From: an archaeon
GTDB taxonomy: Archaea; Nanobdellota; Nanobdellia; Woesearchaeales; GW2011-AR15
Direction: 5' to 3'
Assembly: GCA_043801855.1 (NCBI GenBank)
Contig: JAZDLQ010000017.1
Coordinates: 15,202-79,201, forward strand
Length of the DNA stretch: 64,000 nucleotides
Positions 5,292-47,207 of this stretch are shown here, piece by piece. The notes below the pieces were generated by a model. The model worked only from the letters and a program-made list of their open reading frames with translations, did no database searches and had not been told where the DNA came from. A program made the position numbers and the translations under genes. Each line of letters begins with the position of its first letter. The stretch's first letter is position 1.

Positions 5292-5293
5292 AA

Positions 5294-19723: not shown

Positions 19724-19724
19724 G

Positions 19725-23555: not shown

Positions 23556-23557
23556 AT

Positions 23558-23779
23558 ATGGTAAATGAACTGATTAAAATTTTTGAAAACAGACGCAGTA
23601 ATTTAGTGAAGTTGCTTGACAATGCAAGGGATGATATGGATGCAGGCAAGCAACATCAGCTCTATGGCGCAATACTGGAGATTGACAATGTGCTTGAGGC
23701 AATGCAGGATTTGCACTGTAAAAATATTTCAAAAAAATTATGTGATCGAAAAGATAACTTATTGAGGCTTAAATGCTGA
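23558..23779 (+). CDS. small helical protein
   Basis: 73 aa, 3 nt after the previous stop. No motif. Confidence 0.4.
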   Translation: MVNELIKIFENRRSNLVKLLDNARDDMDAGKQHQLYGAILEIDNVLEAMQDLHCKNISKKLCDRKDNLLRLKC

Positions 23780-23780
23780 T

Positions 23781-24590
23781 ATGGAAGAAGAAATACCTCC
23801 TGAAAAGTATTTTTATGTACATGATGGAACAATAATAAGATGTATTGATGAGCTTCCGATATACCTTACGAGTATGGATGAGCAGATATTTGTATTCCAT
23901 GTAACTGAAGAAAAAAATGACTTTGCATCCTGGATAATGGGTGTTTTTAACGAATCATTGCTTGCCGAAAAAGTACAAAATTCCAAAACAAAAGACGAAA
24001 TGATTAATATAATAGGAGAATACATGGAAAGCAAAATTGTCCTCTCTGTTAATAATTATAACTCTATCAATGCAGATCAGCCAGCGCAGCAGATACATTC
24101 TTCTTTAGAAAAATATGAAAAAGAAATTTCTGAGCACGGCAATGAAGAACTAAATGGTTTGAAATCTGAGGAGTTAACGGCAATCGACTCGCTAAATCTT
24201 TCAAAAGAGGCTCTGGAAATAAATTCATTAACTACAAATCAAGAACCTGAAAAAATTAAGAAACAAGAAGATCAAAAAACAATATTGAATCAAAATGATA
24301 CAAAAGATAATTACATATATACCTACAAAAGAGGAGAAAAAAATCAAAATAGCATAATTTCAAAAGCATTTTTTTTTCATTATGATGAGTTAAAAAAGAA
24401 AATTTCTGAAAAAAGAAAAAAGGGATATGATACTAGCCATTGCAATTTGTTAATTATGCAAATTCCTTCAAAAATCAAGCTGCTTGAACACTTTTTTTCT
24501 GAAAAAGAGTCGCTGAAGCTCATACACTTATTTTATATTATTAATGAAGAATTAAATATACTTACTAAAAAGGAGATGGTGTTGGCGTGA
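23781..24590 (+). CDS. soluble protein with N-terminal docking domain (F.FHV..EKNDFASWI)
   Basis: N-terminal 75 aa align to the C-termini of the 1276-aa and 1493-aa proteins. The C-terminal LIHLFYIINEELN is shared with the next ORF. Confidence 0.6.
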   Translation: MEEEIPPEKYFYVHDGTIIRCIDELPIYLTSMDEQIFVFHVTEEKNDFASWIMGVFNESLLAEKVQNSKTKDEMINIIGEYMESKIVLSVNNYNSINADQPAQQIHSSLEKYEKEISEHGNEELNGLKSEELTAIDSLNLSKEALEINSLTTNQEPEKIKKQEDQKTILNQNDTKDNYIYTYKRGEKNQNSIISKAFFFHYDELKKKISEKRKKGYDTSHCNLLIMQIPSKIKLLEHFFSEKESLKLIHLFYIINEELNILTKKEMVLA

Positions 24591-25279
24591 AACAAAATAA
24601 GACAAAAACAATTCAAAAAATTGATAAAAATAAAGGTAATAAGGAGTTTATTACGTGCACTGGCCAGAAAATAAAAACACTTATGAGCCTTCCGATTGCG
24701 CTTCGTACAATGGATGACATGTGTTTTTCAGCGCACGTGAATGAAAACAAAAATGATTTTGCAGAATGGGTCATTAATGAAATTGGACAAAAGAACTTAG
24801 GAGAAAGAATGCAAGAGCATAAAGATAAGGCATCGCTCCTTAAATTCCTAGTTGATTACCTTGCAGACAAAACCTTAATTCAGGAAGAACTGCAAAATGG
24901 TAGCATGGCTAATGAAAAAATACCTGTTGGCTTTTTTCAAAATTTAATCTATAAGATAAAAAAGACTCTTCATCTAAAGCAAATTGTTAAACCCAATTTA
25001 AGCGAAGCCATACGTGGAAGGCTTTTTATTAGTAAAGTTAAAGATATATCTGATTTGGAAGTAATATTTAGCGAGTCGCTTGAGGAATACAGGTGGAAAG
25101 TATATAGCTTAAAAAGCCGTGGCGAGAACACACAGGAGTGCCAGCTTTATCTTGGAACAACAGAGATGAAGATTAGAGAATTTGGCCAATATGTAAATGA
25201 AAAAAATGCAATAGATATCCTTCATTTATTCTATTGTCTGGATGATGAAATAAAAAAGCATGAAAATTCCAAGACCTAG
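24587..25279 (+). CDS. paralog of the previous ORF (docking-domain protein)
   Basis: ALRTMDDMCFSAHVNENKNDFAEWVINEIG at the N-terminus and ILHLFYCLDDEIK at the C-terminus. 4-nt start/stop overlap with the upstream gene. Confidence 0.6.
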   Translation: MKQNKTKTIQKIDKNKGNKEFITCTGQKIKTLMSLPIALRTMDDMCFSAHVNENKNDFAEWVINEIGQKNLGERMQEHKDKASLLKFLVDYLADKTLIQEELQNGSMANEKIPVGFFQNLIYKIKKTLHLKQIVKPNLSEAIRGRLFISKVKDISDLEVIFSESLEEYRWKVYSLKSRGENTQECQLYLGTTEMKIREFGQYVNEKNAIDILHLFYCLDDEIKKHENSKT

Positions 25280-25348
25280 ATTTATAAACTAGATTAAAAT
25301 ATCAAGATATCACAGCAATACTTGTAATTATTAAAAAAGAGGTTGAAT

Positions 25349-26449
25349 ATGTGGCCGTTTAAGCCAAAATTTGCAAGAATAGAAGACCAGCAGGAAAAAA
25401 AAGAGGATGAGTCAGCGGTAGCTGCGCCTAGCAATGATGATTTTCAAGGGAAATCTTCTGATTCTATGCTTGGCGCTGAAATTATGAAATTAAAAGCGCA
25501 GTTTGACCAATTTTCAGAGCTTCGAAAAGTATTTAATGAACGCTTTACAAGAATAAACGAGCAGATTGGGGAACTTCGTGGAATGATAATGGATACTAAT
25601 CGTTCCATGCAGGATGTAGAAGTAAAAACTGTAAAAGCAGTTGACTTGGTAAGCGCAGTTCAGCCAGATAAGCTAATGGTTGAAGTAAAAAAGCAGGATG
25701 CAAAAATTGAGGCACTCAAAGCTAATATAGAAAGTAACGAAGCTATTATGAAATCAATTCTTGACCAGCTAAAAGATATGAGAATACAAGTGTCAAAATT
25801 CAGAGGAGTTGACCAGATTGTTTCTTTATCTGAAGATGTAAAAAAAGAGCTGATGAACATCAAAAAAGTAGAGGCAACTCTTGAGCGACACTCTGATAAG
25901 GTTGAAGGAATATTTATGGAATCACAAAAACGGTTCCAGGATTTTGAGAGAGTTGTAAACAAGCAGGCGGACTTTGACAAGCAGGTGAAAGCAATTCAAG
26001 AGCAGTCTGATCAGCTTAAAATTAAGATTCCCGTTTTTTCAACAAAAAAGGAGATGGAAGATCTTCAGGGTAAATACAATGAATTTGAAAAACACACTGC
26101 AAATGTAATTGATCTTGTTACAAAAAGAGCAAATGATCTTCCTGTCGAGATAAACGACAGATTTGCTCGCTTTGAAAAAAATATAAACAGTGCATTTGAA
26201 AAAAAGATAAGAAAAACAGATGAAACAAATAAATTGATTTCAGAAATTGAAAAAAAAGCACAGAAAATTGCCAAAGAATTAAAACTTCACCAGGCAACCA
26301 CTGAAAAAAAAGAGGAAGGAGCGTCTCTAATAAATTCAGATATGCCAAAAGCTGAAAATAAGGATGAAGCTCCATCAAAAGAGGCAACTGAAAAAAAAGC
26401 AAGATTCTTAGAAGGGCTGTTTAAGAAAAAAGAGAAAGAAAAGAAATAA
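25349..26449 (+). CDS. coiled-coil protein
   Basis: ~366 aa dominated by heptad-like K/E-rich segments. The listed ORF starts at TTG 25343, but ATG 25349 (MWPFKPK) with an upstream GAGG is more likely. Confidence 0.5.
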   Translation: MWPFKPKFARIEDQQEKKEDESAVAAPSNDDFQGKSSDSMLGAEIMKLKAQFDQFSELRKVFNERFTRINEQIGELRGMIMDTNRSMQDVEVKTVKAVDLVSAVQPDKLMVEVKKQDAKIEALKANIESNEAIMKSILDQLKDMRIQVSKFRGVDQIVSLSEDVKKELMNIKKVEATLERHSDKVEGIFMESQKRFQDFERVVNKQADFDKQVKAIQEQSDQLKIKIPVFSTKKEMEDLQGKYNEFEKHTANVIDLVTKRANDLPVEINDRFARFEKNINSAFEKKIRKTDETNKLISEIEKKAQKIAKELKLHQATTEKKEEGASLINSDMPKAENKDEAPSKEATEKKARFLEGLFKKKEKEKK

Positions 26450-29851: not shown

Positions 29852-30022
29852 ATGAGAAAGCCAAAACCAAAAAAGACAAGATTATGGCTCTATGTAGATG
29901 AGAAAATCCTTTCGTGGGTATATGAAAAAATGGAAAAAAAAGAGTATTCAGATGAGTCGCACTGCTTTGAGCGGCTTGTCATGGAAAAAATGAATTCAGA
30001 AGAAGTAAATGGAGCTAAGTAA
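29852..30022 (+). CDS. small protein (56 aa) upstream of the KaiC-like gene
   Basis: MRKPKPKKTRLWLYVDEKILSWVYEKMEKK... A basic N-terminus plus helix may indicate a small regulator. Below the ORF-track cutoff. Confidence 0.3.
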   Translation: MRKPKPKKTRLWLYVDEKILSWVYEKMEKKEYSDESHCFERLVMEKMNSEEVNGAK

Positions 30023-30045
30023 TTTAAAAAAATAAGGTGAAATAA

Positions 30046-30915
30046 ATGGAAAATCAAAAATCAGAGATTCTAAAAAATAATTCTATTACAGACACAGCGC
30101 TCGATTACGATGCAGCAACGCATATAGGCTCGTCGCAGGGAGAAGGCTTACCGCAAAATAAAGTCTACACAATGAAATACCTAAAAACAGGAGTTCCTGG
30201 TTTTGATGAGCTTATTGATGTTGGTATTCCTCGTGGCTCGCAAGTTCTTATATCAGGCGGGCCTGGGACGTCAAAAACTACTTTTTGCCTGCAGCTTCTT
30301 GTACATGGGGCAAAAAACAATGAAAAATGTCTTTTTTTGTCTTTTGAAGAAGATACAGAAAAGCTAATTTATTATATGAGAAAATACGGCTGGGATCCTG
30401 ATGAGCTTATAAAAAATGGTAATCTATTAATAAAAAAGCTTGACCCATTTAAAATTTCAAGAAGCGTTGAGACTCTTTTGGCACAAGCAAGAGGAGAGCT
30501 TTTAATTGAGACAAACCAAGTTAAGGATTTAATACCAGATGATTTTATTCCGGACAGAATTGTTCTTGATTCACTATCTGCTGTTGCGGCAGGATTTTTT
30601 GGAAAAGACGAAGGCTATAGGGCTTACATCAGCCAGATATTTGATACCTTTAGAAAAATTGGGGCAACTTCATTTTTAATTTCAGAAATAGAGCACTCGA
30701 CAACTAAATACAGCCAGTCTGGAGTTGAGGAATTTTTAGCTGATGCGGTTTTTGTCTTTTATAATCTGAGGCAAGGAACACAGAGGATTAACGCAACTGA
30801 AATTGTGAAAATAAGAGGGACATCACATAAAAAAAGAATAGTTCCGTTTAAGATTAATTCAGGAAAAGGCGTTGTTGTATATCCTATGGAAGAATTATTT
30901 TTTGATGATAAATAA
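30046..30915 (+). CDS. KaiC/RadA-like single-domain ATPase
   Basis: GVPGFDELIDVGIPRGSQVLISGGPGTSKTTFCLQLLVHG (KaiC-type Walker A) and downstream LDSLSAV core strands. 289 aa. Confidence 0.75.
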   Translation: MENQKSEILKNNSITDTALDYDAATHIGSSQGEGLPQNKVYTMKYLKTGVPGFDELIDVGIPRGSQVLISGGPGTSKTTFCLQLLVHGAKNNEKCLFLSFEEDTEKLIYYMRKYGWDPDELIKNGNLLIKKLDPFKISRSVETLLAQARGELLIETNQVKDLIPDDFIPDRIVLDSLSAVAAGFFGKDEGYRAYISQIFDTFRKIGATSFLISEIEHSTTKYSQSGVEEFLADAVFVFYNLRQGTQRINATEIVKIRGTSHKKRIVPFKINSGKGVVVYPMEELFFDDK

Positions 30916-30968
30916 TAATTAGCTTGAATATTCGAACTATATTTATGAACCAAAAAAAGAGGTGAAAA

Positions 30969-33900
30969 TTGGCAGAAAAAAAGTTAGCTAAAAAATCAAT
31001 ATTATTTATGCTAGCTTTTGCTCTGCTTATCTTTTTAATTATTTTTTCACTGCCGCAGATTTTTGCGCCAGCAGGAAGAATCTGCAATTCAACATCACCC
31101 TGCGCATGCGGCAGCGCCTGCAACTCTGGCAATGAAGTTTCAAATGGATATAATACTATAGACAGCTGTCGGGATGGCCCAAATTATAATTACGAATGGA
31201 TCCACGATATTAATATAACAAACCAGAACGACTCTGTTTTTAACGGGCACGATACTGTTCAAGCAGATGCTTTCTTAAACTGCGATCTTGACGGCGATTC
31301 TGTTTCTTTTGCTTATAATAACGGCAGCGGCTGGAAAAATGTGGGTGATGCAACATGCTCTGTTGACGGATATTCACATAGATACCAAAATATAACTTTA
31401 GATAATGTAAGAGGATATCACACAATAAGGGTAATAATTTCGCCTACTGCGTATGGCGGAAGAACTGGGATGACGTGCGGATACACTTATGATACAGGAT
31501 ATTCTGATTCAGATGATGTTAGCCTTTACGTTCTTTTATCAGGTCAGGTAGTGGATTTAGTGATGCCATCAGTAAGAAACTTAAATCCATCAGGCACTGA
31601 ATTCAATTACCAAAACAATCTTGTAATTAATATTTCAGCAAACGTCTCTGATAATATTAACGTAAGCACAGTTTTCGCAAATGTTTCCTGGTCAACAAAA
31701 AATGAGTTAATAAGCCTTGCGCATGTTGGAAATGGGATTTATCTTGGCAATTTTACAAACACAAGTTTTCTTGGCATCTACAATTATACTCTAATTGCAA
31801 ATGATACTTTAAACAACATAAACCAGACAGTAAAAAATTATTTCATAATCAATATGACTTCAAATATTACAGTTTACTCTCCTGTTTCAAACAGCGTTTA
31901 CAAATATCAGGAAACTGATTTCTTTTTTGAGATACCTGCTTTATATGGAGCAGATTTTGTGTGGTATTATTTAGAAGGATATTCTACTGAATTTGCAAAC
32001 GATAATTACAAGCTGTCTTTTGAAGAAAGCGGAAGCGAAGAAGAAGAGATCTCCCAGGCAAGCGTTGATTTAACAAATATCTCGCAGTCGTTTGCTACTG
32101 TTTATGGAATGAATATAAACAAAATCTCACTTAAGATTAAAAAAACAGGAAACCCTGAGAACTCAACTGTTGAAATAAAGGATAATTCAGGCTATCCGCT
32201 AAATAATGCAATTGCAACTGCAAACATAACTTCAGATGATGTTTCTGAAGGATCTTTTGAATGGGTTAACTTGACATTTAACCAGACTGTTTCTTTAAAC
32301 GCAGATACAACTTACTGGATATATTTAATTTCAAATGGAACTGAACAAAATTTTTATGAATTTGAGATAAATTCACAAAGCGCATATGCTGGCGGAAACT
32401 TAAGCAACAATGCAACAAAAGATATGCTCTTTAGGCTATATGACAATAAAAAATACCTGATAAGAGATATTGATTTGGAAAGGCAGGAATATAATGTCCA
32501 ATTTTTTGCAAACCATTCTGTTTTTCCGCAGATTGAATCCGAATACATTACTTTTATTGTAGATTATACTCCTCCTGTGATAAGCGATCTAACTTACACA
32601 CCTTCAGATAGCGATGGGCTTGATCCAGGCACTCCAATAAATGTATCATTGATGGTTTCAGATGAGCTGGCAGGAGCAAATGCTACCCTTCGTTATATGC
32701 ATGAAGATGATGATGACTGGTCAGTTTTTGAGATGGAAAATAAGACTGGTTATTTTGAAGGGAATTTTACGCCTGATAGGGAAGGCCAATGGTATTTTTC
32801 GATTTATGTAATTGACTCTTCATTTAATGATGATTCAATTGAAAACAATGAGCTTGACGTGCGCTATGAATACAACTGGTCAATAACACCAAATGTATTT
32901 AATTCAACAGGCGGAATGCTTGGCACAAATATAACAATTGGGACTCTATTGATAAATAATAGCGCGGACTTTACATATGAATTCAATGTATCGCCTCTCC
33001 AGGCATCTCCTATAATTTATATCAATGAATCAGTCCAGAGATTAATTACACTAGATCCAGGAGAAACAATTTCATATCAGATAATAGGAACTACAAAAAA
33101 TTCGCTTTCAACAGATTATATAAATATATTAGTTGATGCGCAAAACGACACAGCATCACCGCAATCTTATTACAGTAATATTACATTGATATCTGTTTTA
33201 AGCGGCCCATTTTTGCATGTTGATATTGTAGACTATTCATCAACTGTTGTCCAGGGAAGCCATGTAAATACAATCAAGGCAAGAATAACAAATGTTGGAA
33301 ACGAGACAGCTTTTAATGTCAGTGCAAACTGGACTCTTCCAGAAGGATGGACAAGCAGGGAAGCAACAAACCTTACTTATGATAATATATCTTCTGGCGG
33401 TTATGACTCAAAAGAATATACAATTAGCGCTGATGTTTCATCGAGTGCGCCATTAGGTGCAGCCCTGATTGAAATTATTGTAAACTGCAGTGAAGGAAGC
33501 AGTGATTCTGACACAAGAACTGTTACTGTTACATCAGCTAGCCAGGATGATAATAACCAAAATAATAACAATAATAATGATAACAATGGAGGCGGTGGCG
33601 GTGGCTCAACAGGCGGCGGCTCAACAGGCGGTGGCTCAACTGTTTATGTGCGTGACCCAAAGCTTGAAATAAATATATCTGATTTTGAAATTATCCGCGG
33701 CCAAAAAAAAGAATTTGCTTTTAGCATCATGAATAATGTATCTGATATAATATTTGGTTCTATAAATTTTAGCATTGAAGGCCTTTATAAAAATTATTAT
33801 AATATCACACCAAATGAAATATTGAACTTTAGCTATGAGGAAAAAGAAGAGATAAAAATCATCATAATTGCGCCAATCTATATGCAGGCAGGCAAGCATG

Positions 33901-35450
33901 ATTTTGTCTTAAAAGCAATAACAGACCAAGGTGTTTTTTCAGATGAATTCAGTTTGATTGTTTTTGATTCTGCTATTAGTAATATCTCATGTCTTGATGA
34001 ATCTTTAAGATTAGTAGATGAACTTGAAATTGCTGGTTTTAATGTAAACAAGCTTAAGGAAGATTATGAAAAAGCAAGTTATCTTAATAACTTAAAAAAT
34101 TACAAAGAGCTATTATCTGCTTGCGATATGATAAAACTTTCTGCTGCTAATGCAATAAAAACAAAAGAAGGCTTACAAAAAATAGAAGATGAAATAATCA
34201 GTCTTAAAGCGCAAGGTTACAACATAAATGCTGCGAATTCTTCGTTAAGTGAATCTTTGCTTCTTCTTAACAGCGGCGAATTTGACAAGGCATATGTGGC
34301 GCTGAAAGATTCAATATTTCTTTTAGACATAACAAAAAAAACAGGAAAGCCGCTGCCAATTGCAGTAGGAGATTTTATAAAAAAAAATCTGGTTGCAATT
34401 TTACTTGGCTTAATTGCTATAGCTATATTCATAACGCTTAGCGTAAAGCATATTGCGCTTGTTACAATGAAAAGAAAGCTTAGATTATTAAAAAGTGAAG
34501 AAAAAGAGATAATGAAGCTTTTTTGCAATATTCAAAAAGAACATTTTGAAGATAAGATTATGGGAACCAGACTTTATTTAAAATACATGGATGAATACAG
34601 GGCCAGGCTTGCAAAAATAAAAGAAGAAACTATAAGGCTTGAGTTAAATATATTGAACAATGGCTCATCACGACATGGCTTAAATGAGCATAGAAAAAGA
34701 ATTGAGCGGCTTGTTATTGATATCCAGGATTCCTACTATAATAAAAAGGTGCTTGATAAATCATCATATGAAAAAATGCTATATATCTATCAGCAGCAGC
34801 TTGCGTCGCTTGATGAAAAAATATTGCTTACCAAAAAAAACAAGAGCCACAAAAATGAAGAGAAAAAAGAGCAATTAACAGAAGCTACATTTTTGAATAG
34901 TAGATATGATAAAAATCTAGATTTGCATAGTACTCAAGAAGAAAATAAGCAACAAGAAGCTGAAAAAAGTGAGTATGAAGTTGATTATGATGAAGAGCAT
35001 ATTGTATCCGAATCTTCTGGCAAACAAGGTACAAATGATGATTTGTTAGTTCAAGAAGAGAACTTAACTTCGGAAGATAATTTGCTTGCAAGTAAAAAAC
35101 ACACAGCAGTGCTAAACTATCTCTTACATAGAGATGATTCAGATAGCACTCTTAATGAAGAAAATAATTATAGGCAAAAAGAGCCGGAAAAAAATATCTC
35201 TGCTGAAAAATATTTTATTCTTTCAGACGGAAGAAAAATTGATTCAATAGATAATTTGCATACTATTCTTCTGGAAATTACAGATGAAACATTTGCTTAT
35301 CATGTTTCACAAAGCCGAAATGATTTTTCAGATTGGATTACAAATGTATTTAATAATAAAGAACTTGGAGAAAAAATACAGGCTGCAAAAACAAGGAAGG
35401 AAATAATAACAGTGCTTGATAATTTTTTAAGTGAAAATGAAAAAGACTAA
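30969..35450 (+). CDS. 1493-aa type-I surface protein with a Cys-rich N-terminus, N/G-rich linker, C-terminal TM, cytoplasmic coiled-coil/acidic tail ending in the docking domain; TTG start
   Basis: GAGGTGA RBS 6 nt upstream of TTG. Signal/anchor SILFMLAFALLIFLIIFSL. CNSTSPCACGSACNSG. Linker NNQNNNNNNDNNGGGGGGSTGGGSTGGGS. TM LVAILLGLIAIAIFITLSV. C-terminus ..ITDETFAYHVSQSRNDFSDWITNVF... Confidence 0.8.
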   Translation: MAEKKLAKKSILFMLAFALLIFLIIFSLPQIFAPAGRICNSTSPCACGSACNSGNEVSNGYNTIDSCRDGPNYNYEWIHDINITNQNDSVFNGHDTVQADAFLNCDLDGDSVSFAYNNGSGWKNVGDATCSVDGYSHRYQNITLDNVRGYHTIRVIISPTAYGGRTGMTCGYTYDTGYSDSDDVSLYVLLSGQVVDLVMPSVRNLNPSGTEFNYQNNLVINISANVSDNINVSTVFANVSWSTKNELISLAHVGNGIYLGNFTNTSFLGIYNYTLIANDTLNNINQTVKNYFIINMTSNITVYSPVSNSVYKYQETDFFFEIPALYGADFVWYYLEGYSTEFANDNYKLSFEESGSEEEEISQASVDLTNISQSFATVYGMNINKISLKIKKTGNPENSTVEIKDNSGYPLNNAIATANITSDDVSEGSFEWVNLTFNQTVSLNADTTYWIYLISNGTEQNFYEFEINSQSAYAGGNLSNNATKDMLFRLYDNKKYLIRDIDLERQEYNVQFFANHSVFPQIESEYITFIVDYTPPVISDLTYTPSDSDGLDPGTPINVSLMVSDELAGANATLRYMHEDDDDWSVFEMENKTGYFEGNFTPDREGQWYFSIYVIDSSFNDDSIENNELDVRYEYNWSITPNVFNSTGGMLGTNITIGTLLINNSADFTYEFNVSPLQASPIIYINESVQRLITLDPGETISYQIIGTTKNSLSTDYINILVDAQNDTASPQSYYSNITLISVLSGPFLHVDIVDYSSTVVQGSHVNTIKARITNVGNETAFNVSANWTLPEGWTSREATNLTYDNISSGGYDSKEYTISADVSSSAPLGAALIEIIVNCSEGSSDSDTRTVTVTSASQDDNNQNNNNNNDNNGGGGGGSTGGGSTGGGSTVYVRDPKLEINISDFEIIRGQKKEFAFSIMNNVSDIIFGSINFSIEGLYKNYYNITPNEILNFSYEEKEEIKIIIIAPIYMQAGKHDFVLKAITDQGVFSDEFSLIVFDSAISNISCLDESLRLVDELEIAGFNVNKLKEDYEKASYLNNLKNYKELLSACDMIKLSAANAIKTKEGLQKIEDEIISLKAQGYNINAANSSLSESLLLLNSGEFDKAYVALKDSIFLLDITKKTGKPLPIAVGDFIKKNLVAILLGLIAIAIFITLSVKHIALVTMKRKLRLLKSEEKEIMKLFCNIQKEHFEDKIMGTRLYLKYMDEYRARLAKIKEETIRLELNILNNGSSRHGLNEHRKRIERLVIDIQDSYYNKKVLDKSSYEKMLYIYQQQLASLDEKILLTKKNKSHKNEEKKEQLTEATFLNSRYDKNLDLHSTQEENKQQEAEKSEYEVDYDEEHIVSESSGKQGTNDDLLVQEENLTSEDNLLASKKHTAVLNYLLHRDDSDSTLNEENNYRQKEPEKNISAEKYFILSDGRKIDSIDNLHTILLEITDETFAYHVSQSRNDFSDWITNVFNNKELGEKIQAAKTRKEIITVLDNFLSENEKD
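33546..33641 (+). repeat. low-complexity poly-Asn / (STGGG)n coding repeat
   Basis: AATAATAAC repeats followed by GGCTCAACAGGCGG x3. Confidence 0.6.
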
Positions 35451-35463
35451 AGGATTTGCAAAA

Positions 35464-36804
35464 ATGAATATTCATTCTTTAATTTTATGTGTTTTATTAG
35501 TTTTACTGTTAGCTGTGCAGCCAGCATTTGGAGAAAATGTAAATATTACTTATTCAAAAATTGTTGGATTTGCAGAAGATTTAAACATGCGCAATATGGA
35601 TGCAGAGCGTATTTTAGAATTGCATATTGAGGCAAAAGAGGCGCTGCAGAAAAACGATTATATCCTGTATGAAAAAAAAGTTAATCAGGCATACGATGCA
35701 TATCTTTTTGCTATAAGCCTTTATGAATCACAGCAGGTACTTGATAAAAATATTGTATCGCTTGGATCTCTTAATTATTCTCAAAAAGAGATAAAGAAAA
35801 AAGCATATGAAATATCATATGAACTATCTGTTGGAAATTATGAGCAGGCAAAAATATACTTAGATTATGCAAACTCAGAAATTAACAATATCTCAAAAGA
35901 TGTGAAAAAAACCATTAATACAAGGCTTTCTGCACTAAATGCTACTCTATTGCAAAATGGCATTAAACTAAGGCTGATAGAATCTTATTATAACAGTGTA
36001 AATTCAGCACAAGAAGCAAGTGATATTTCAAAGCTTGCCGAGATATTGCAGAATACTATTGAGCTTGAAAAATCTATTGGATATCTTGTTTTACTAAAGC
36101 AGTTTGAAATCAATGCCAAAGAAAATAATGTACCTACTATTATCTTCAAAGACATCAGCGATGAAGCAAATAACCTGATTGAAAAATCAAGATTTGAATC
36201 TGTAAAAGAATTGTATTTGTTGGGAAGAGAAAAATACAACAAGGCAATAGGTGCATATGCAGCAATTAGTGATGCACAAACAAAAATCGCAAAGCTTAAT
36301 AGCACAGTTACAGATGCCGCAGAAAGCGAAATAGCTGCTGCATCTTTTGCGTTAGAAAAAGCAAAGAAGCAATTCAATGAAAGCGATTTTGAAAGTTCTT
36401 TATTGAACGCAAAAGATGCTATTGCCAAAGCAGAAGGAATTGAAAACAAAAATAAGGTTCTGAGTGCAATTACACTCTCAAGATTAAATGTAGATTTTAT
36501 TGGGTTTATAAAAAAGAACTGGATATATTTATTTGCATTATTTGTTGCTATTATAATATTTTGGGTATATATATACAAAAAAATACAAATACTTGTGTAT
36601 CAATATAAATTAAAAAAAGCAATAGAGCAAAAAAATAATCTCATTAGTTGCATCAAAAAACTTCAAGACGATTATTATAATAAAAAGTCAATGCCAAGGC
36701 CAATATATGATGCAAGGCTTGATGCATATCAGGAAGGACTGATACGCCTGACACGCGAAATTCCATTGCTTAAAAATGCTATTGCAAAGGAGAAAAAGAG
36801 GTGA
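35464..36804 (+). CDS. type-I membrane coiled-coil protein (signal peptide, extracellular coiled-coil, C-terminal TM, short cytoplasmic tail)
   Basis: MNIHSLILCVLLVLLLAVQPAFG signal, long helical region, TM NWIYLFALFVAIIIFWVYIY. The likely start is ATG 35464 rather than the overlapping 35431. Confidence 0.55.
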   Translation: MNIHSLILCVLLVLLLAVQPAFGENVNITYSKIVGFAEDLNMRNMDAERILELHIEAKEALQKNDYILYEKKVNQAYDAYLFAISLYESQQVLDKNIVSLGSLNYSQKEIKKKAYEISYELSVGNYEQAKIYLDYANSEINNISKDVKKTINTRLSALNATLLQNGIKLRLIESYYNSVNSAQEASDISKLAEILQNTIELEKSIGYLVLLKQFEINAKENNVPTIIFKDISDEANNLIEKSRFESVKELYLLGREKYNKAIGAYAAISDAQTKIAKLNSTVTDAAESEIAAASFALEKAKKQFNESDFESSLLNAKDAIAKAEGIENKNKVLSAITLSRLNVDFIGFIKKNWIYLFALFVAIIIFWVYIYKKIQILVYQYKLKKAIEQKNNLISCIKKLQDDYYNKKSMPRPIYDARLDAYQEGLIRLTREIPLLKNAIAKEKKR

Positions 36805-36805
36805 G

Positions 36806-37234
36806 ATTATGAAAAATAAAAGTGATTTTGTATTTGAAAACTTAGAGGATTTGAAAGCGTATAAAGTTGGAGGAGTAGCAGGTTACTTCTATCTTGAGAT
36901 GTTTAATAATAGCGGCATAAAATATGATTATTCAGATAATGAAGCTGATTCGCTTCAAAAACTTGTAGCAGGGAGAATTGACCTTCTGCCTTTCACAACA
37001 TCAAATGGATGGGATCTAATTCGCAGCAAATATCCAGATGAGGCCAGCAATTTTGGCACATTAGACAAGCCGCTTGACTCAAATAGCATTGGATTGATAA
37101 TTTCGAAAAATTACCAAAGCTCAAATGAGTTGTTAAGCCAGTTTAACTCAGCCGTTAGGAAAATTGTTGAAAATGGAAAATATCAGGCAATACTTACAGC
37201 ACACGGACAGCAAGAAGGAAGTATAATTGAGTGA
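36806..37234 (+). CDS. truncated solute-binding-protein-like (SBP_bac_3 C-lobe-like) domain protein, no signal peptide
   Basis: DSLQKLVAGRIDLL..NGWDLI...IGLIISKNY..LLSQFNSAVRKIVENGKYQAI resembles the second lobe of amino-acid-binding proteins. GGAGA/GAGGTGA RBS before ATG 36806. Confidence 0.45.
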   Translation: MMKNKSDFVFENLEDLKAYKVGGVAGYFYLEMFNNSGIKYDYSDNEADSLQKLVAGRIDLLPFTTSNGWDLIRSKYPDEASNFGTLDKPLDSNSIGLIISKNYQSSNELLSQFNSAVRKIVENGKYQAILTAHGQQEGSIIE

Positions 37235-37256
37235 ATTTGTTAGAAACTAGTTAAAA

Positions 37257-38918
37257 ATGAAAAGCCACATTCTTTACAAAGTAATTGCTATATTGGTAAT
37301 TTCTGTAATTGCTATGATGGTAATTGAAGGTGTTTTCTCATATTTGTCAGAAAAAAATAAAGCGATAGCTGGCATGAATAAGAATGCAGACCTGTCAGTT
37401 GAGCGCCTTTCCAACAGCCTTATTTATCCTTTATGGAATATCAATTATCCAGAGATTGAAAAAAGCATGATTTTTGAGATGATTAGCCCTGATGTTAAGG
37501 CGATTTTGCTGTTTAATTACAATGGCAAATTTCTCATTGGCAAATCAAAAGACAGTAATCAGGAAATCAAAAAAATTGAGTTAGATGCCAAAACTCAGGA
37601 TGAACTTGATAAAAGCTTTTTAACTCGAACAAAATCAATTACCAAAGAAAATGAGCTCAAAGAAAATGAGGTTATAGGTTCAGTAACAATATACTATACG
37701 GATTTTTTCATGAATAAATATCTTAAAACTGAAATATTAAAGATACTCGTTCAAATCATAGTGGTTTCCACAGCAATTATTTTTATTTTATTTATTAGTT
37801 TAAGGCAAATGATTCTTTTGCCGCTCTTAAATCTGGAAAAAATAGTGAAACAGTTTAGAAATAATGATTTTTCTGCACGAGTTCAGAATATTTCAGATGA
37901 TGAAATAGGAGAACTTTATTTCTCTTTCAATAAGATGCTTGACCAATTGATTTCATCAAAAAAAGTTATAGAAAATCATAATAGAGAATTAGAAAATAAG
38001 ATTGCTAATAGGACTAATGAATTGGATAATAGGGTTAAAGAGCTTGAAAATACCAAAAAGGCAACCTTGAATATTCTTGAAGATATAGATAACACAAATA
38101 AGGAGCTGATATCCGCAAAAGAAGAGCTTGGCAATAAAGTAAAGGAGCTTGAAGTAATGGACAGGAAAAAAGATGAGTTCTTGTCTGTAACAGCCCACGA
38201 ATTAAAAACTCCGCTTACAAGCATCAAGGGCTTTGCAGATCTTCTTAATAACGAAAAAATAATGGAAAACAAGGAATTAAGGAAAAAATATTTTGGCATA
38301 ATTATTGAGGATACAATAAGGCTTGAGCGCCTGATAACTGACATTCTTGATCTTTCGAGGTTGGATGTTGGTACCATGAAATTTAATTTTGAGAAGACAA
38401 CTGTAGATGAATTATTTACTGAATTAATCAACCTATCAACTGTATCAATTAAGAAAAAAGGGTTAATTCCCATATTTAAGGCACAAAAAGGAATTCCTTG
38501 TTTTTACGCTGATAAATCCAGGCTTATTCAGGTTTTATCAAATCTTATTAATAATGCAATAAAATACACTGAAAAAGGATATATTAAAATTGAAGCAAAA
38601 TTAACCGACAAGAAAAATATAGAATTTTCTGTGACTGATACAGGTATTGGAATAGTAAAAGACGAATTTTCGCATCTTTTTGAGCGCTTTTACCAGATTG
38701 ACTCATCATACACAAGAAAAGTTGGTGGCTCAGGGCTAGGCCTTGCGATTAGCAAAGGAATAATTCAGGCTTTAGGGGGAAAAATTTGGTTGGAAAGCAA
38801 ACCAGGCAAAGGCTCAAAATTCATTTTTGTCCTTCCAATAATGGAAAAAGAGGGTGTAGAAAAAGTTGATATGCTAAAAGATAAAAATGAAAACATTGCA
38901 AAAGATAATACAAATTAG
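37257..38918 (+). CDS. sensor histidine kinase (2 TM, HAMP, coiled-coil, HisKA, HATPase_c)
   Basis: TM helices. HAMP-like LPLLNLEKIVKQFRNNDFSARV. H-box SVTAHELKTPLTSIKGFADLL. N-box LSNLINNAIKYT. G-boxes DTGIGI and GGSGLGLAI. Confidence 0.85.
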   Translation: MKSHILYKVIAILVISVIAMMVIEGVFSYLSEKNKAIAGMNKNADLSVERLSNSLIYPLWNINYPEIEKSMIFEMISPDVKAILLFNYNGKFLIGKSKDSNQEIKKIELDAKTQDELDKSFLTRTKSITKENELKENEVIGSVTIYYTDFFMNKYLKTEILKILVQIIVVSTAIIFILFISLRQMILLPLLNLEKIVKQFRNNDFSARVQNISDDEIGELYFSFNKMLDQLISSKKVIENHNRELENKIANRTNELDNRVKELENTKKATLNILEDIDNTNKELISAKEELGNKVKELEVMDRKKDEFLSVTAHELKTPLTSIKGFADLLNNEKIMENKELRKKYFGIIIEDTIRLERLITDILDLSRLDVGTMKFNFEKTTVDELFTELINLSTVSIKKKGLIPIFKAQKGIPCFYADKSRLIQVLSNLINNAIKYTEKGYIKIEAKLTDKKNIEFSVTDTGIGIVKDEFSHLFERFYQIDSSYTRKVGGSGLGLAISKGIIQALGGKIWLESKPGKGSKFIFVLPIMEKEGVEKVDMLKDKNENIAKDNTN

Positions 38919-38955
38919 ATAAATTTAAGAACAAGATTAAATACTATTTTTATAG

Positions 38956-39336
38956 ATGATTAAAATGGCAAAACAAAAAATACTTGTTGTTGACGATGAA
39001 CCACATATGATTGAATTAGAACGTGCAATTCTTGAAAGCGAAGGCTTTGAAGTAATGGCTGCATCAGGTGGAGCAGAGGCTCTTGAAATGCTAAAAACAG
39101 TTAAACCTGCTCTTGTTCTCCTTGACATGATGATGCCTGTCATGTCAGGCAGAGAAGTGTGCGAAAAAATAAGAACAAATCCGAAGACAAAGGATTTAAA
39201 GGTGATTTTTGTTACAGTTGCAAGATTTTCAGAAATTGGCAAAAAAATCCTTGCTGATATGAAAGTTTCAGACTATGTTACAAAGCCTTTTGACAATGCC
39301 GATTTTGTTAGAAGGGTAAAGAAAGCGCTGGCCTAA
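38956..39336 (+). CDS. stand-alone response-regulator receiver (CheY-like)
   Basis: KILVVDDEPHM...LVLLDMMMPVMSGREV..KVIFVT has the phospho-acceptor Asp and conserved Lys context. 126 aa, no output domain. Confidence 0.85.
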   Translation: MIKMAKQKILVVDDEPHMIELERAILESEGFEVMAASGGAEALEMLKTVKPALVLLDMMMPVMSGREVCEKIRTNPKTKDLKVIFVTVARFSEIGKKILADMKVSDYVTKPFDNADFVRRVKKALA

Positions 39337-39452
39337 ATTTTTCTTTTTCAAAATTAGCTTATCTGATACGCTGCTAGATGAATAAATGTCAATTTTATAT
39401 CCGAAAATATTATATACAGGTTCTTCGTATTTAGTTTTAAAAAAGAGGGGAA

Positions 39453-42020
39453 ATGCAAAGCATAATTAGAGTACTAGAATTAGCATACGAAGATAATAAA
39501 GATTATGTTCTTCTGGTAGATGATGACCTTAAAATAATCTGGGCAAATAATGCTTTTTTTCATGATACTCCTAATAAAAAAAATAAAGTTCTTGGAAAAT
39601 CATGTCATGAAGCTTTTAAGAATTCACAATTTCACTGTGATGAGTTTCTGGTAACTGAGGCGTTAAATACAGGAAAACAATCATTTCATAGGCATAAAAA
39701 TGAGATCCACAGCGCAACTCCATTTGAGAATGCAGGAAGGGAATATGTACTTTATAAAATAAGCGATGGAAAGGCGATTCTGGGAGCAGATGCGGACTTA
39801 TCTGAAACAAAAATCACCAGCAAAGCGCCTGAAAAAAGCGATGAAAAATACAAGCTTCTTTTCAATAACATCTCAAACTGTGTTGCAATTTATGAAGCAG
39901 CAAGCGATGGCAAGGACTTTATATTTGTTGATGTAAATAAAGCAGCAGAAATATCATTAAGAACTAAGTCTAAAGACATGATTGGAAGGCGTGTCACGCA
40001 GGTTTTTCCAGGAATTATCAAGATGGGCCTTCTTAAGATCTTTTCAAGAGTTTATAAAACTGGAAAACCTGAATTATTTTCACAAACCGAATACAAAGAT
40101 AAAAAACTTTTTATGTGGGTTGAAAATTATATATTTAAGCTGCCTTCAGGGCTTATTGTCGCGATCTTTAACGACTATACAGAAAAGCACAAGATAGAGG
40201 AAGAACTTAAAAAGTCAAGGAACTATTACATGTCTCTTTTTGAAAACCTGCCAAACCCTATATGGATGTCTGGAAATGATGCAAAGTGCAATTATTTTAA
40301 CAAGGCATGGCTTGATTTTACTGGGCAAGCCTTAGAGCATGAGATGGGTGACGGCTGGACAGAAGGAGTTCATCCTGATGATTTGGCAAGATGCATTAAA
40401 ATATACATGGGGTCGTTTAAAGAAAGAAAGCCTTTTGTAATGGAATACAGGCTAAAGCATAATGACGGGGCATTTCACTGGATTATTGATTATGGAACAC
40501 CATTGTTTGACATGGAGGGCAAGTTTAGTGGATACATTGGCTCTTGCTATGATATTAATGAGAGAAAAATTGCAGAAGAGAGAATGGAGCAGGCAAACTT
40601 AATTATCCAAAATAGCTCAAATATTATATTCATCTGGTCTGCAAAAAAAGGATGGCCTGTATTATTTGTTTCAGATAATTTCAGTAAATGGGGCTATGCG
40701 GCAAGTGATTTCAATTCTGGGAAGTTTTGCTATGCAGATATTGTCTATAAAGAGGATTTGCCGCAGCTTGTTGAAAAAGTAAAAAACATTGAAGCGATTA
40801 ATTATGACGAAATAAAAATCCAATATCGTATTAGGAAAAAAGATGGCTCTATTATCTGGGTTGATCAATGGTCTTGCCTTATCCGTGATGAAAAAGGCAA
40901 TCCTTTGAAATATGAAGGAATTGTCAAAGATATAACTGCCCAAAAAGAGGCGGAAGAAATTGAACAAAAAAAATATGGAACTATCGAAAAATTTAACAAT
41001 TGCCTAAAAGAGATTGCAAAAAACGCTTCACTAAAGACAGGAAAGCTTGAATCTTTTTCAAAGAAATTATGCGAAAAAGTGGCAAAGATTATATGCACAA
41101 GGTATGTCAGCATATGGTTTTTTGATTCAGATAATAAAAATTTAGTATCACTTAGTTCATATGATTCAAAGAAAGGCAAACACACATCAATTGAAATCCT
41201 GGCTGTCAAAGATTGCTCTGCATATTTTAAGGCACTTAATGAACAAAGAGTAATTGCTGCAAACGATGCCATTAACGATTTTCGGACAAAAGAGTTCAAA
41301 GAATATTATTTTAAAAAACATAAAATTGTTTCTATGCTCGATTCGCCAATAAGAATAGGACATGATCTTGTTGGCATATTAAGTTTTGAGCATTCCGGTA
41401 AAATAAGAAGCTGGTCAAATGAAGAGCAGAATTTTGCCGTGTCTCTTGCAGAATTTATATCTCTAACATATTCTTCATTCAAGCTTAAAAAAAGCGAAGA
41501 AGAGGCAAGAGCTGAAAAACAATTTATTGAAAAAATTATTGAAAATGCGCCAAGTATTATTATCGGGCTTGATGAGAATAATAGAATTATTCTGTTTAAT
41601 GCTTATGCTGAGAATATTACTAAGTACAAAAAAGAAGAAGTGTTGAATAAAAAATGGGTTGAGATTTTTGGCTGTAAAGACACAGGAAGTAAAGATATCT
41701 TCGATATGCTCAAAAAAGGAGAAAGTAATATTACTTATGAGGAAGAGATAATATCAAAAGAAGGAAACAAGCTGATGATTTTTTGGTCAAGCAGTTCTTT
41801 CAATGATAAAAAATCTGAACTGAAATTCATGTTCATCGGCCAGGATATAACAGAAAAATCATGGCTTGAGCAAAAGGCAAATGCCCTTAATATTGAGCTA
41901 ACGAAGAAGATTGAGGACCTTGAACGGTTCCAGAACTTGACTGTTGGGCGCGAACTTAAGATGCTTGAGCTTAAAAAAAGAATTAAGGAATTAGAAGAAC
42001 AAATATCTTCACTTAAATAA
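39453..42020 (+). CDS. multi-PAS/GAF sensor protein without recognisable output domain, C-terminal coiled coil
   Basis: At least three PAS-like blocks (..NCVAIYEAASDGKDFIFVDVNKAAE.., ..NPIWMSGNDAKCNYFNKAWLDFTG..HPDD.., ..IIIGLDENNRIILFNAYAE..). GAF-like VSIWFFDSDNKNLVSLSSYD...LVGILSFEH. No kinase, GGDEF or HD motifs. Confidence 0.75.
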   Translation: MQSIIRVLELAYEDNKDYVLLVDDDLKIIWANNAFFHDTPNKKNKVLGKSCHEAFKNSQFHCDEFLVTEALNTGKQSFHRHKNEIHSATPFENAGREYVLYKISDGKAILGADADLSETKITSKAPEKSDEKYKLLFNNISNCVAIYEAASDGKDFIFVDVNKAAEISLRTKSKDMIGRRVTQVFPGIIKMGLLKIFSRVYKTGKPELFSQTEYKDKKLFMWVENYIFKLPSGLIVAIFNDYTEKHKIEEELKKSRNYYMSLFENLPNPIWMSGNDAKCNYFNKAWLDFTGQALEHEMGDGWTEGVHPDDLARCIKIYMGSFKERKPFVMEYRLKHNDGAFHWIIDYGTPLFDMEGKFSGYIGSCYDINERKIAEERMEQANLIIQNSSNIIFIWSAKKGWPVLFVSDNFSKWGYAASDFNSGKFCYADIVYKEDLPQLVEKVKNIEAINYDEIKIQYRIRKKDGSIIWVDQWSCLIRDEKGNPLKYEGIVKDITAQKEAEEIEQKKYGTIEKFNNCLKEIAKNASLKTGKLESFSKKLCEKVAKIICTRYVSIWFFDSDNKNLVSLSSYDSKKGKHTSIEILAVKDCSAYFKALNEQRVIAANDAINDFRTKEFKEYYFKKHKIVSMLDSPIRIGHDLVGILSFEHSGKIRSWSNEEQNFAVSLAEFISLTYSSFKLKKSEEEARAEKQFIEKIIENAPSIIIGLDENNRIILFNAYAENITKYKKEEVLNKKWVEIFGCKDTGSKDIFDMLKKGESNITYEEEIISKEGNKLMIFWSSSSFNDKKSELKFMFIGQDITEKSWLEQKANALNIELTKKIEDLERFQNLTVGRELKMLELKKRIKELEEQISSLK

Positions 42021-42021
42021 A

Positions 42022-42615
42022 TTACAATTCATAAAGCCTATCTGTAAACATCAGCAAATCTTTAAACAGCATCTCTTTTTCAGCGAATGATTCTTCGGCG
42101 CTGCATTCCCTGCTTGCAAACACTACCTTTTCATTGCTTCCTGCAGATTTGGAGAATCTGTCAATAAAAAGGACAATCTCATGCGGCCTGTTGTATTTTA
42201 GAAGAGCGCAAAGTGTATCTACAACAAATGCATCACAACTTTTAGCAGCTTCTGATATTTTACTTTCCAGTTCAGTTAAGTTATATGGTGCTGACACAAA
42301 AATACAATCATCAGTATCTTCCTTTTTTTGATAATGGCTGCTTAATACATCAATATACTTCAAGTCTTTTATTTTCAAATTAGCAGCATCTATTTTGGCT
42401 TCATCATAAGTCTTGTTTATACAGACTAGACAAGTTCTTTTTTTATTCTTATAGTTTTCAATCAGTGTTTTATTTATATTGGAATCAAGTAAATTTATTG
42501 GACTCACAACAAGGGAAAGTATGTTAATGTTTTGATTTTTATTTTCAGTCATTGATTGAGTAAGTATAGTTCTACTATTTATTCTTTTATCACTTCTATT
42601 TAATAACAAATACAA
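42022..42615 (-). CDS. hypothetical protein, paralog of 47208-47735
   Basis: Shares CxVxINK..(I/Y)xDx(L/I)S...C.F(V/I)S(A/S)P..LT(E/D)(L/I)....E..K.CD..(V/I)xDTL..L..Y....I..F with ORF 47208-47735. Possibly a P-loop-less RecA/KaiC-fold domain (inference). Confidence 0.45.
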   Translation of the reverse strand: MYLLLNRSDKRINSRTILTQSMTENKNQNINILSLVVSPINLLDSNINKTLIENYKNKKRTCLVCINKTYDEAKIDAANLKIKDLKYIDVLSSHYQKKEDTDDCIFVSAPYNLTELESKISEAAKSCDAFVVDTLCALLKYNRPHEIVLFIDRFSKSAGSNEKVVFASRECSAEESFAEKEMLFKDLLMFTDRLYEL

Positions 42616-46034: not shown

Positions 46035-46745
46035 TTACTTATTGACTTTTATTCCACTGTTGCTTATAACGAAGGGAAGTGCAGAATCATGCTGGCATGT
46101 CCATCTCATTTTCGGAATAAATATCCTTCGCTCAATATTGCCAAATGAAAGGTACTCAAGGCTGATTTCTCCATCTATAAAAAACGATACTAAGCCTGTA
46201 AAGTCATTTAGCAATTTTGGATCCTTTTCAAGGACAAGAAGTGTTGTAAGCCCCTCTCTTCTAAACAAGGAAAATGATTCAACAATGAGCCTTCTTAGAT
46301 TTACTTTGCTTGCTATACTTTCTCCTTTTCCTGTGCCATAATGGAAATTGAAAAAGCCGTTGTAGCTGTCAATAACAAGCCTTGTGATCTTCTTATCCTC
46401 TCTTATTTTTGTAAATAGATCATTGTAGATGTTTTCAAATTCATCATAAGGTATGCACATAATCTTTAATTTTCCATTTTTTTCGTGTTCTAAAAGATTG
46501 CTGCCAAAATTAGCGCTTGAAAAGATTCTGTCAATGTTTTTTCTTGGCTCTTCAAGATTAATATATATCCCTTTTTCGTAGTTTTTTGCTCCTTCAAGAA
46601 GGAAGTGTAGTGATAGCAGTGATTTACCAATTCCTGCTGGACCAGATAATCCGATAACACTCCCTGAAGGCAAGCCTCCTTCAAGCATCCAATCCAGGCC
46701 GATAATTCCGGTTTTAATCCTTTCAATTGAGGTTTTTTTTGCCAT
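46035..46745 (-). CDS. KaiC/RadA-like single-domain ATPase
   Basis: GIIGLDWMLEGGLPSGSVIGLSGPAGIGKSLLSLHFLLEGA Walker A and RecA-like core. 236 aa. Confidence 0.75.
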   Translation of the reverse strand: MAKKTSIERIKTGIIGLDWMLEGGLPSGSVIGLSGPAGIGKSLLSLHFLLEGAKNYEKGIYINLEEPRKNIDRIFSSANFGSNLLEHEKNGKLKIMCIPYDEFENIYNDLFTKIREDKKITRLVIDSYNGFFNFHYGTGKGESIASKVNLRRLIVESFSLFRREGLTTLLVLEKDPKLLNDFTGLVSFFIDGEISLEYLSFGNIERRIFIPKMRWTCQHDSALPFVISNSGIKVNK

Positions 46746-46762
46746 TATTATTCACCATTAGA

Positions 46763-47068
46763 CTACAATTTTATCTTGTCAACGACAAAAACATAAATAT
46801 CTTTATGCTTGCTCTCTATTCTTTGGCAGCGGACATCGCTTTTAGAGTTAACTCCTTTTTCGCGAAACTTTTTTGGTATAAGAAAATAAATTGTAGAATC
46901 ATTTTTTCCCCTCATTGAGATCCTTGATTCATTAAGGCAGGCGCCTTCGGCAAAAATATGTATATTTTCCATGAATCCCTTTAGAGCAAGCGATTCTTCT
47001 TTCCCAAGAGAAATATTGTGAGTGACACTTCCGTCCTCTTCAAGCTTTGCATTAAGGATAGTTCCCAT
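46763..47068 (-). CDS. small hypothetical protein
   Basis: 101-aa ORF between the paralog gene and the KaiC-like gene, in the same operon by spacing (17 nt and 139 nt). Confidence 0.35.
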   Translation of the reverse strand: MGTILNAKLEEDGSVTHNISLGKEESLALKGFMENIHIFAEGACLNESRISMRGKNDSTIYFLIPKKFREKGVNSKSDVRCQRIESKHKDIYVFVVDKIKL

Positions 47069-47207
47069 TCATCTGCTCCTCTTTTAATATATTGGCTAAA
47101 ACCATAATCCTATCAACCCCTGAATTTGCTAAACGAGAACCCTATATAAATTTTTCTTTTGAGAAAAACAAAATAGTTTCATGCATTATATTTGTAACAA
47201 TAAAGTT

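Follow-up and report, generated by a model that had tools for sequence, protein, structure and literature searches.

In a 2017 mBio article, Makarova, Galperin and Koonin reportedly described archaeal KaiC-like ATPases as signal transduction hubs. Cyanobacterial KaiC, a two-domain ATPase, is paired with a kinase and a response regulator (SasA/CikA-RpaA), and ArlH/FlaH, another member of the KaiC superfamily, has a single domain and acts together with a membrane-associated machine. In Sulfolobales, the surface-layer (S-layer) pair SlaA/SlaB is encoded by a large glycoprotein gene followed by the gene of a coiled-coil protein of ~450 amino acids (aa) with a C-terminal anchor. DPANN archaea are abundant, and to our knowledge almost nothing is known of how they sense or engage hosts. 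Here we describe a locus in a 64-kb stretch of a woesearchaeal genome (contig JAZDLQ010000017.1 of assembly GCA_043801855.1, positions 15,202 to 79,201; 64,000 nucleotides, hereafter 'the window') in which the gene of a KaiC-like ATPase is followed by those of a large surface protein, named here big, and of a helical membrane protein, named here cc. These three genes are inherited as a unit, and their order and domain architecture lead us to read the locus, tentatively and with slightly less than even confidence, as a conserved DPANN-specific, envelope-spanning input module of archaeal 'KaiC hub' signalling. The features of the module, at their positions in the window, are as follows.

29852-30022, + strand: small basic protein, 56 aa, isoelectric point 8.7
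30046-30915, + strand: single-domain KaiC-family ATPase of the CI type, 289 aa (PF06745, E 2.7e-50)
30969-35450, + strand: big, bitopic surface protein by topology prediction, 1493 aa
34533-34748, + strand: two copies of the tail motif Q-x-x-[HY]-[FY]-x-x-K in big, at aa 1189 and 1253
35205-35441, + strand: DUF5752/OrfY-like domain at the C terminus of big, aa 1413-1491 (profile and AlphaFold2 fold)
35431-36804, + strand: cc, helical bitopic protein, 457 aa (paralogue of big by hhalign)
36664-36687, + strand: tail motif of cc, one copy

A search of protein databases with the ATPase returned 460 homologues, with identities of 52-82% to the non-self homologues among the 120 listed of these 460, and the nearest homologues of the locus proteins come from metagenome-assembled genomes (MAGs) of Woesearchaeota and Nanoarchaeota, both DPANN. 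A scan of one genome per GTDB species gave 282 relatives, from which 79 loci were taken, their open reading frames (ORFs) called and searched with profiles of the window proteins and their orthologues; L-numbers denote these compared loci and WIN the window. In all five genomic contexts that were looked up individually, the KaiC gene is followed by the gene of a 1285-1480-aa protein and then by that of a 442-557-aa protein. The order KaiC, big (~1300-1700 aa), cc (~450 aa) is found in every close locus with enough downstream DNA, in ~20 species-level genomes, where a close orthologue is one with a KaiC profile score of at least 414 and cc is seen wherever the contig reaches that far. Among the 37 loci spanning 15 kb or more, 27 contain big, more distant Pace-, Aenigm- and Nanoarchaeota loci included; in distant loci the big-cc pair stays together, sometimes on the other strand. 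On the Nanoarchaeota contig JAGLMD010000011.1 (L025/L030), two KaiC/big/cc modules flank a HerA module, and both big proteins end in a DUF5752 domain.

Conservation of the gene order from species to species places the arrangement far beyond chance. That the genes are chance neighbours devoid of joint function is hardly credible, since their order is kept over KaiC identities from 82% down to ~50%, the reading frames overlap (by 20 nt between big and cc, and by 29 nt between cc and the following gene fragment) and the DUF5752 domain alternates between adjacent genes, as shown below. The original prediction, made from the window alone, had proposed that the small basic protein, the ATPase, big and cc form a co-directional group; the orthologous loci bear this out as a conserved unit. 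It had also named a weak point, namely clustering of the ATPases with housekeeping RadA paralogues and lack of a conserved linkage to the surface protein, and the ~20 close loci show instead that the linkage of KaiC and surface protein is conserved. The operon is one of few multi-gene systems kept across Woese-, Pace-, Nano- and Aenigmarchaeota, with an ATPase that is 50-80% identical between groups, and through it a two-component system and a cytoplasmic ATPase of the KaiC type are connected to large surface proteins. No earlier description of this module was found in the literature: searches on DPANN and KaiC gave nothing specific, and a 2015 survey of archaeal membrane proteins describes an unrelated system. 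Neither the module with its partner surface proteins, nor the tail motif, nor the mobile DUF5752 domain seems to have been described before; the wiring of KaiC to sensors and two-component proteins is already a comparative-genomic proposal.

The C-terminal domain of big recurs elsewhere in the window. When aa 1413-1491 are compared with the window by tblastn, matches are found at 23784-24026 (39.5% identity, E 5e-15), 24641-24868 (E 5e-10) and 23325-23501 (E 2e-6), placing copies at the N termini of a 269-aa ORF (23781) and a 230-aa ORF (24587) and at the C terminus of a 1276-aa HerA/DUF87 ATPase; a second copy in the HerA-like protein was found by profile. The copy on big scores 16.9 bits against PF19027 (DUF5752), below the cutoff of 23, and the paralogous copy on HerA passes that cutoff with 25.9. 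A profile made from the window copies matches OrfY of Thermoproteus tenax (PDB 4CSO, E 6.6e-5) via a common KNDFAxWI motif, and the AlphaFold2 model of the copy on big (pLDDT 89) has 4CSO as its sole credible Foldseek match (probability 1.00, template-modelling score of 0.58, r.m.s.d. value of 2.1 Å, 81 columns). An exhaustive hidden Markov model search finds 5024 clusters in the DUF5752-like family at E ≤ 1e-3, and 57 of the 65 multi-domain top matches of the domain profile hit PF19027. By profile and predicted fold, the tail domain is thus DUF5752/OrfY-like, and the operon would provide a first functional context for this family of ~5000 sequence clusters. OrfY shares the motif and the fold with the tail domain of big; however, OrfY is a stand-alone two-repeat protein, whereas single copies occur here on a membrane-protein tail and on KaiC-like and HerA-like ATPases.

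Across the compared loci, the domain occupies one of two positions. It lies at the C terminus of big in eight loci (the window, L008, L009, L012, L013, L016, L025 and L030) and at the N terminus of KaiC in eight others (L017, L018, L021, L024, L027, L029, L031 and L046), and none of these 16 loci carries it on both proteins. A flexible, low-complexity linker joins the domain in both placements, and the linker region of big (aa ~1300-1400) is present only in loci with DUF5752 on big. In a crude neighbour-joining tree of the ATPase core, neither placement is monophyletic, with L025, L030 and L039 falling outside the main clades; in addition, KaiC paralogues with one to three DUF5752 copies lie nearby in L010, L012, L013, L024, L028 and L039. 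Alternation of a domain between neighbouring genes is classically taken as evidence that their products act in one complex. Because DUF5752 alternates between them, the domain architecture argues that the KaiC ATPase and big act as one cytoplasmic unit. The placement also goes along with gene content: the small basic gene and an adjacent HerA module are found only in loci with DUF5752 on big, and a DUF7504 gene directly after cc is found only in the other architectural types, in all 12 loci where big is devoid of DUF5752. Fisher tests on these architectural types are descriptive only, the loci not being phylogenetically independent.

Stand-alone DUF5752 genes point in another direction. Three of the five examined (L087 8001-8396, L088 8001-8273 and L091 535-909) sit inside glycogen/alpha-glucan clusters, surrounded by genes for glycogen synthase, GH57, GDE_C, GalT-like, PGM and sugar nucleotidyltransferase proteins, and the contexts of the other two are uninformative. 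This setting hints that the domain may be tied to carbohydrate storage. DUF5752/OrfY might accordingly be pictured as an alpha-glucan or sugar-metabolite sensor, wired in DPANN onto the KaiC switch, the HerA motor and the surface-protein tails, so that a host-contact apparatus would be gated by the carbon-storage state; we consider this doubtful, and, if true, it would be a new link between metabolism and cell-cell interaction. Our literature search on DUF5752/OrfY found nothing specific to the family. The original prediction had called the tail domain a docking domain that links the KaiC and HerA loci. The link itself stands, the two modules being adjacent in five of the eight loci of the same type, but the label is unproven for a domain that is mobile and has copies in glycogen clusters. 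Because of these stand-alone copies, docking is one possibility and a metabolite- or glucan-linked input domain another, and 'docking' may be the wrong label.

In big, a signal/anchor lies at the N terminus (aa 10-28), and aa 39-170 hold 8 of the 12 Cys residues; a poly-N/GGGST linker is found at aa 860-891, and a transmembrane helix (aa 1141-1159) is followed by basic residues and a cytoplasmic tail of ~330 aa. The Cys-rich N terminus, poly-N linker, membrane helix and tail expected from the first reading of the sequence are thus all present. N-x-S/T glycosylation sequons number 50 in the ectodomain versus 4 in the tail, and a weak NEW3/CARDB-like match was found in Pfam. The ectodomain is 21-48% identical across 21 orthologues, calculated over 50-residue windows, and a hypervariable adhesin is ruled out by this conservation.

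The cc protein, which the NCBI annotation calls as 455 aa, implying a start at 35437, shows a signal peptide, an all-helical ectodomain, a transmembrane helix (aa 364-382) and a 75-aa tail. A word-indexed homologue search with cc returned only cc itself, and profile comparison with hhalign aligns it to big (probability 99.6%, E 6.5e-24, 245 columns). The matching part of big, aa ~984-1226, encompasses the membrane-proximal helical ectodomain, the transmembrane helix and the first cytoplasmic helix with its tail motif, and by this alignment cc is a paralogue of the membrane-proximal region of big. The tail of big contains two copies, and that of cc one copy, of the motif Q-x-x-[HY]-[FY]-x-x-K with a conserved Tyr behind it; the motif is kept after the transmembrane helix in 21 of 21 big and 6 of 6 cc orthologues examined. 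It has no Pfam family match, and a SHOCT-like assignment likewise received no Pfam support. Together with the DUF5752 domain, the tail motif (Q-x-x-Y-[FY]-x-x-K) is a candidate interaction surface.

The layout of big and cc recalls SlaA/SlaB, and one alternative is that the two are a structural S-layer pair of this kind, with the KaiC-like ATPase helping to anchor, assemble or quality-control the lattice. A 1493-aa protein followed by a 457-aa protein, with signal peptides, a helical stalk and C-terminal transmembrane helices, matches in both size and order; the high sequon density of the big ectodomain, its conserved rather than hypervariable sequence and the presence of the big/cc pair in most loci would all suit such a role. 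However, no sequence relationship to SlaA/SlaB was detected, and neither big nor cc matches an S-layer family in Pfam or NCBIfam. Big also differs in having its own transmembrane helix and a long conserved cytoplasmic tail, and the pair is linked here to an ATPase. A passive lattice would hardly be expected to have a tail of ~330 aa, a conserved, repeated motif that recurs in cc, or a domain whose place alternates with the ATPase, and the recurrent DUF7504, receiver and kinase neighbours described below point to signalling. We therefore regard a structural S-layer role as unlikely.

Family membership of the ATPase was assessed with the curated cutoffs of Pfam and NCBIfam, scores being given in bits. 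The protein scores 171.3 against PF06745 (cutoff 26.6), covering model positions 1-230 of 231, and its nearest solved structures are the CI domains of double-domain KaiC (best 8zn5, 195 bits). It carries the catalytic SFEE, the Walker B IVLDS and a CI-like GVEEFLAD motif, and shows E-E where the CII domain of KaiC has the phosphorylation sites S431/T432. The Walker A Lys/Thr (K77/T78 in the window ATPase), the catalytic EE and the Walker B motif are kept in all ~80 orthologues checked. The cutoffs for circadian KaiC (NF006799 / TIGR02655; 139.7 versus 408 and 105.4 versus 546) and for KaiC_arch_3 (126 versus 249) are missed, as are those for ArlH/FlaH (51.0 versus 215, 52.2 versus 194 and 27.3 versus 215) and RadB (16.6 versus 278). 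No RadA model in NCBIfam matches the first ATPase, and the second KaiC-like ATPase of the window reaches 25.9 versus 259 in the RadA/RadB test. The two ATPases are thus of the KaiC family rather than RadA/RadB, in keeping with their KaiC-like label in the original prediction, and by these scores the first belongs to a distinct DPANN-centred KaiC clade that lies below every curated equivalog cutoff. It shares with cyanobacterial KaiC the ATPase fold, the catalytic EE of CI and the pairing of a KaiC-type ATPase with a kinase and a response regulator; it differs in its single domain, in the E-E at the CII sites, in its new membrane partners and in the lack of kaiA and kaiB, no match to KaiA or KaiB being found among the window ORFs in a Pfam scan.

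The original prediction drew an analogy with ArlH/FlaH, and by extension the ATPase could be an accessory of this class for an archaellum or type IV pilus. Membership of the KaiC superfamily is common to both, but with 51 bits versus a cutoff of 215, and best matches to KaiC CI-type models and structures, the ATPase falls far outside the ArlH family. The arl gene context is also wanting: no ArlI, ArlJ, pilin or TadC was found among the scanned window ORFs or in the Pfam-annotated orthologous loci. An ArlH-like role is thus very improbable, and the analogy does not hold.

The Walker A motif of the window ATPase (30256-30279) reads GGPGTSKT, with Ser in place of the consensus Gly before Lys. The form GGPGT[S/A/M/L]K[T/S] is shared by all nine members of the clade of the window (window, L008-L010 and L012-L016) and by none of ~70 other orthologues, and it coincides with DUF5752 on the surface protein and with the small gene upstream. 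Replacement of this glycine suggests an altered handling of nucleotide. The product of the small gene, the 56-aa basic protein, is highly conserved in eight orthologous loci and always encoded directly upstream of the KaiC gene. AlphaFold2, run on the single sequence, gives a model (pLDDT 75) with an extended segment and then two helices, compatible with the strand-helix-helix topology of ribbon-helix-helix (RHH) proteins, and hhalign finds the protein colinear with a hand-typed RHH alignment (P = 1e-3); no Pfam, PDB-sequence or Foldseek match was obtained. The protein is possibly an RHH DNA-binding regulator.

Downstream of cc, the following features were found.

36776-37234, + strand: substrate-binding protein (SBP)-like ORF, 152 aa, C-terminal lobe only (TIGR01096, E 8e-6)
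37257-38918, + strand: membrane histidine kinase with two transmembrane helices, HAMP, HisKA and HATPase_c
38956-39336, + strand: stand-alone receiver, a CheY-like response regulator (PF00072, E 2.2e-26)
39453-42020, + strand: multi-PAS/GAF sensor protein devoid of a kinase or other output domain (Pfam)
42022-42615, - strand: DUF7504-like (inactive KaiC-like) protein, 197 aa (orf197), convergent with the PAS/GAF gene
46035-46745, - strand: second KaiC-like ATPase (Pfam)
46763-47068, - strand: 101-aa ORF between the DUF7504 gene and the second KaiC-like gene
47208-47735, - strand: DUF7504/KaiC-like gene (Pfam)

The SBP fragment, kinase, receiver and PAS/GAF genes follow cc with gaps of at most 117 nt, in agreement with the original prediction, and the kinase shows HisKA (PF00512, E 5e-19) with the H-box motif HELKTPL and HATPase_c (PF02518, E 4e-32). 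The association predicted between the module and two-component genes recurs: of the 37 loci with 15 kb or more, 23 have at least one kinase, receiver or PAS/GAF gene and 18 have both kinase and receiver. PAS/GAF proteins adjoin the module in L001, L003, L005 and L007. A DUF7504-like gene is found in 28 of the same 37 loci; in 16 of the 37, no more than 300 bp separate it from a stand-alone receiver. Against our DUF7504 profile, the orf197 product, whose gene abuts the PAS/GAF gene, reaches 53 bits, and it has no Walker A motif; because they lack this motif, DUF7504 proteins are inactivated KaiC-like proteins. The predicted second KaiC-like operon at 46035-47735 is present, with Pfam matches. 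In L019, cc, a DUF7504 gene, a homologue of the 101-aa ORF and a homologue of the second KaiC are contiguous with the module, and in L012 the pair adjoins it, so the second operon belongs to the same system. Homologues of the 101-aa ORF occupy the same position in L012 (E 1e-28) and L019 (E 4e-23); AbrB-like and KaiB-like assignments of this ORF received no Pfam support, leaving it outside any assigned family. The SBP-like ORF matches positions 114-247 of 250 of TIGR01096 and has no signal peptide. Full-length SBP genes lie at similar positions in L001 and L005, and the ORF may be the remnant of such a gene.

This neighbourhood is of the hub type. KaiC-like ATPases have been proposed as archaeal signal-transduction hubs, and receiver fusions to inactivated KaiC-like domains are documented in other archaea (PMC5847659). 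Like these hubs, the locus combines a single-domain KaiC ATPase with inactivated KaiC-like proteins, PAS/GAF proteins, kinases and receivers. Receiver and inactive KaiC are linked there by fusion, whereas they are linked here by adjacency; the bitopic pair big/cc and the mobile DUF5752 domain are additions of the present module, which is concentrated in DPANN. The module is thus a candidate transmembrane input into the proposed archaeal KaiC signalling network.

For such an envelope-spanning input, we infer the following arrangement. Big and cc would form a hetero-oligomeric transmembrane stalk, and their tails would hold a hexamer of the KaiC-like ATPase at the membrane. The signal might be a cell-surface event (host or ligand contact) and/or a cytoplasmic cue read by DUF5752, which would act as an adaptor or a sensor, and it would alter the nucleotide or oligomeric state of the ATPase. 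This state could in turn be relayed via the DUF7504 proteins to the receiver/kinase pair, possibly also to the RHH-like protein, and so to gene expression or behaviour. The original prediction had left the locus between envelope assembly and signalling; signalling fits the evidence better, and envelope assembly finds no specific support.

Several points weigh against a signalling input nonetheless. Its support comes entirely from the order of the genes and the architecture of their domains. In ~40% of loci two-component genes are absent, and the counts given above ignore phylogeny. Loss of the Walker A glycine in the clade of the window may leave an ATPase that is slow or serves only as a switch, the conservation of the big ectodomain would also suit a structural surface protein, and the DUF5752 copies in glycogen clusters are accommodated by a signalling model rather than predicted by it. 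The RHH assignment of the 56-aa protein is weak.

A further feature of the window shares the DUF5752 domain with big.

16391-26449, + strand: HerA-type module

In this module, the 1276-aa HerA/DUF87 membrane ATPase is preceded by a PKD/MopE surface protein of 1110 aa and followed by two small DUF5752 proteins and by a coiled-coil protein of 368 aa. The HerA/DUF87 ATPase has an N-terminal extracellular region of ~600 aa, a transmembrane helix and two DUF5752 copies. The HerA module adjoins the KaiC module in WIN, L001/L008, L005/L016, L010 and L025/L030; L005/L016 and L010 carry the full gene set, L001/L008 and L025 the greater part of it. This adjacency raises the possibility that the KaiC module is the regulatory part of a machine for host contact or translocation, in which a HerA/FtsK-like ATPase would be the motor, the KaiC-like ATPase would modulate it as ArlH does ArlI, and DUF5752 would join the parts. 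Both modules carry DUF5752, and DUF87/HerA/FtsK ATPases and KaiC are the recurring partners in the 65 multi-domain top matches of the domain profile (DUF87/HerA in six, KaiC in five); an ORF for a LamG surface protein of more than 5090 aa lies nearby, and DPANN archaea are mostly host-dependent (PMC6393860). However, no HerA module is found within 10 kb in any of the 12 loci where big is devoid of DUF5752, which means that in most genomes the KaiC module occurs on its own. Topology predictions show a polytopic channel protein in neither module, and the ATPase is unrelated to ArlH. On balance we think a HerA-driven machine improbable, and retain an envelope-spanning input to KaiC signalling as our tentative reading.

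All genes named in the original prediction were found where it had placed them in the 64-kb window, whose G+C content is ~34%. From 29852 to 42020 every gene is co-directional, with overlaps or gaps of at most 117 nt. The locus proteins are identical to the NCBI MAG entries MFH0874619-21 (locus tags V1859_01695 and V1859_01700), annotated as 'ATPase domain-containing protein' and 'hypothetical protein'.

Giant surface proteins occur in DPANN genomes, and the LamG protein is one of this kind: a single ORF on the + strand from 48729 to 63998 runs beyond the end of the window and codes for over 5090 aa, in which four or more LamG (Laminin_G_3) domains and a DUF2341 domain were recognised. A weak similarity links the N-terminal part of this protein to aa 226-294 of big. 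Elsewhere in the window, the - strand at 10045-10842 encodes an RQC and HTH_40 protein devoid of a helicase core, and the + strand at 2424-5971 encodes an SNF2-family helicase (with DUF3670) followed by a SWIM zinc-finger protein.

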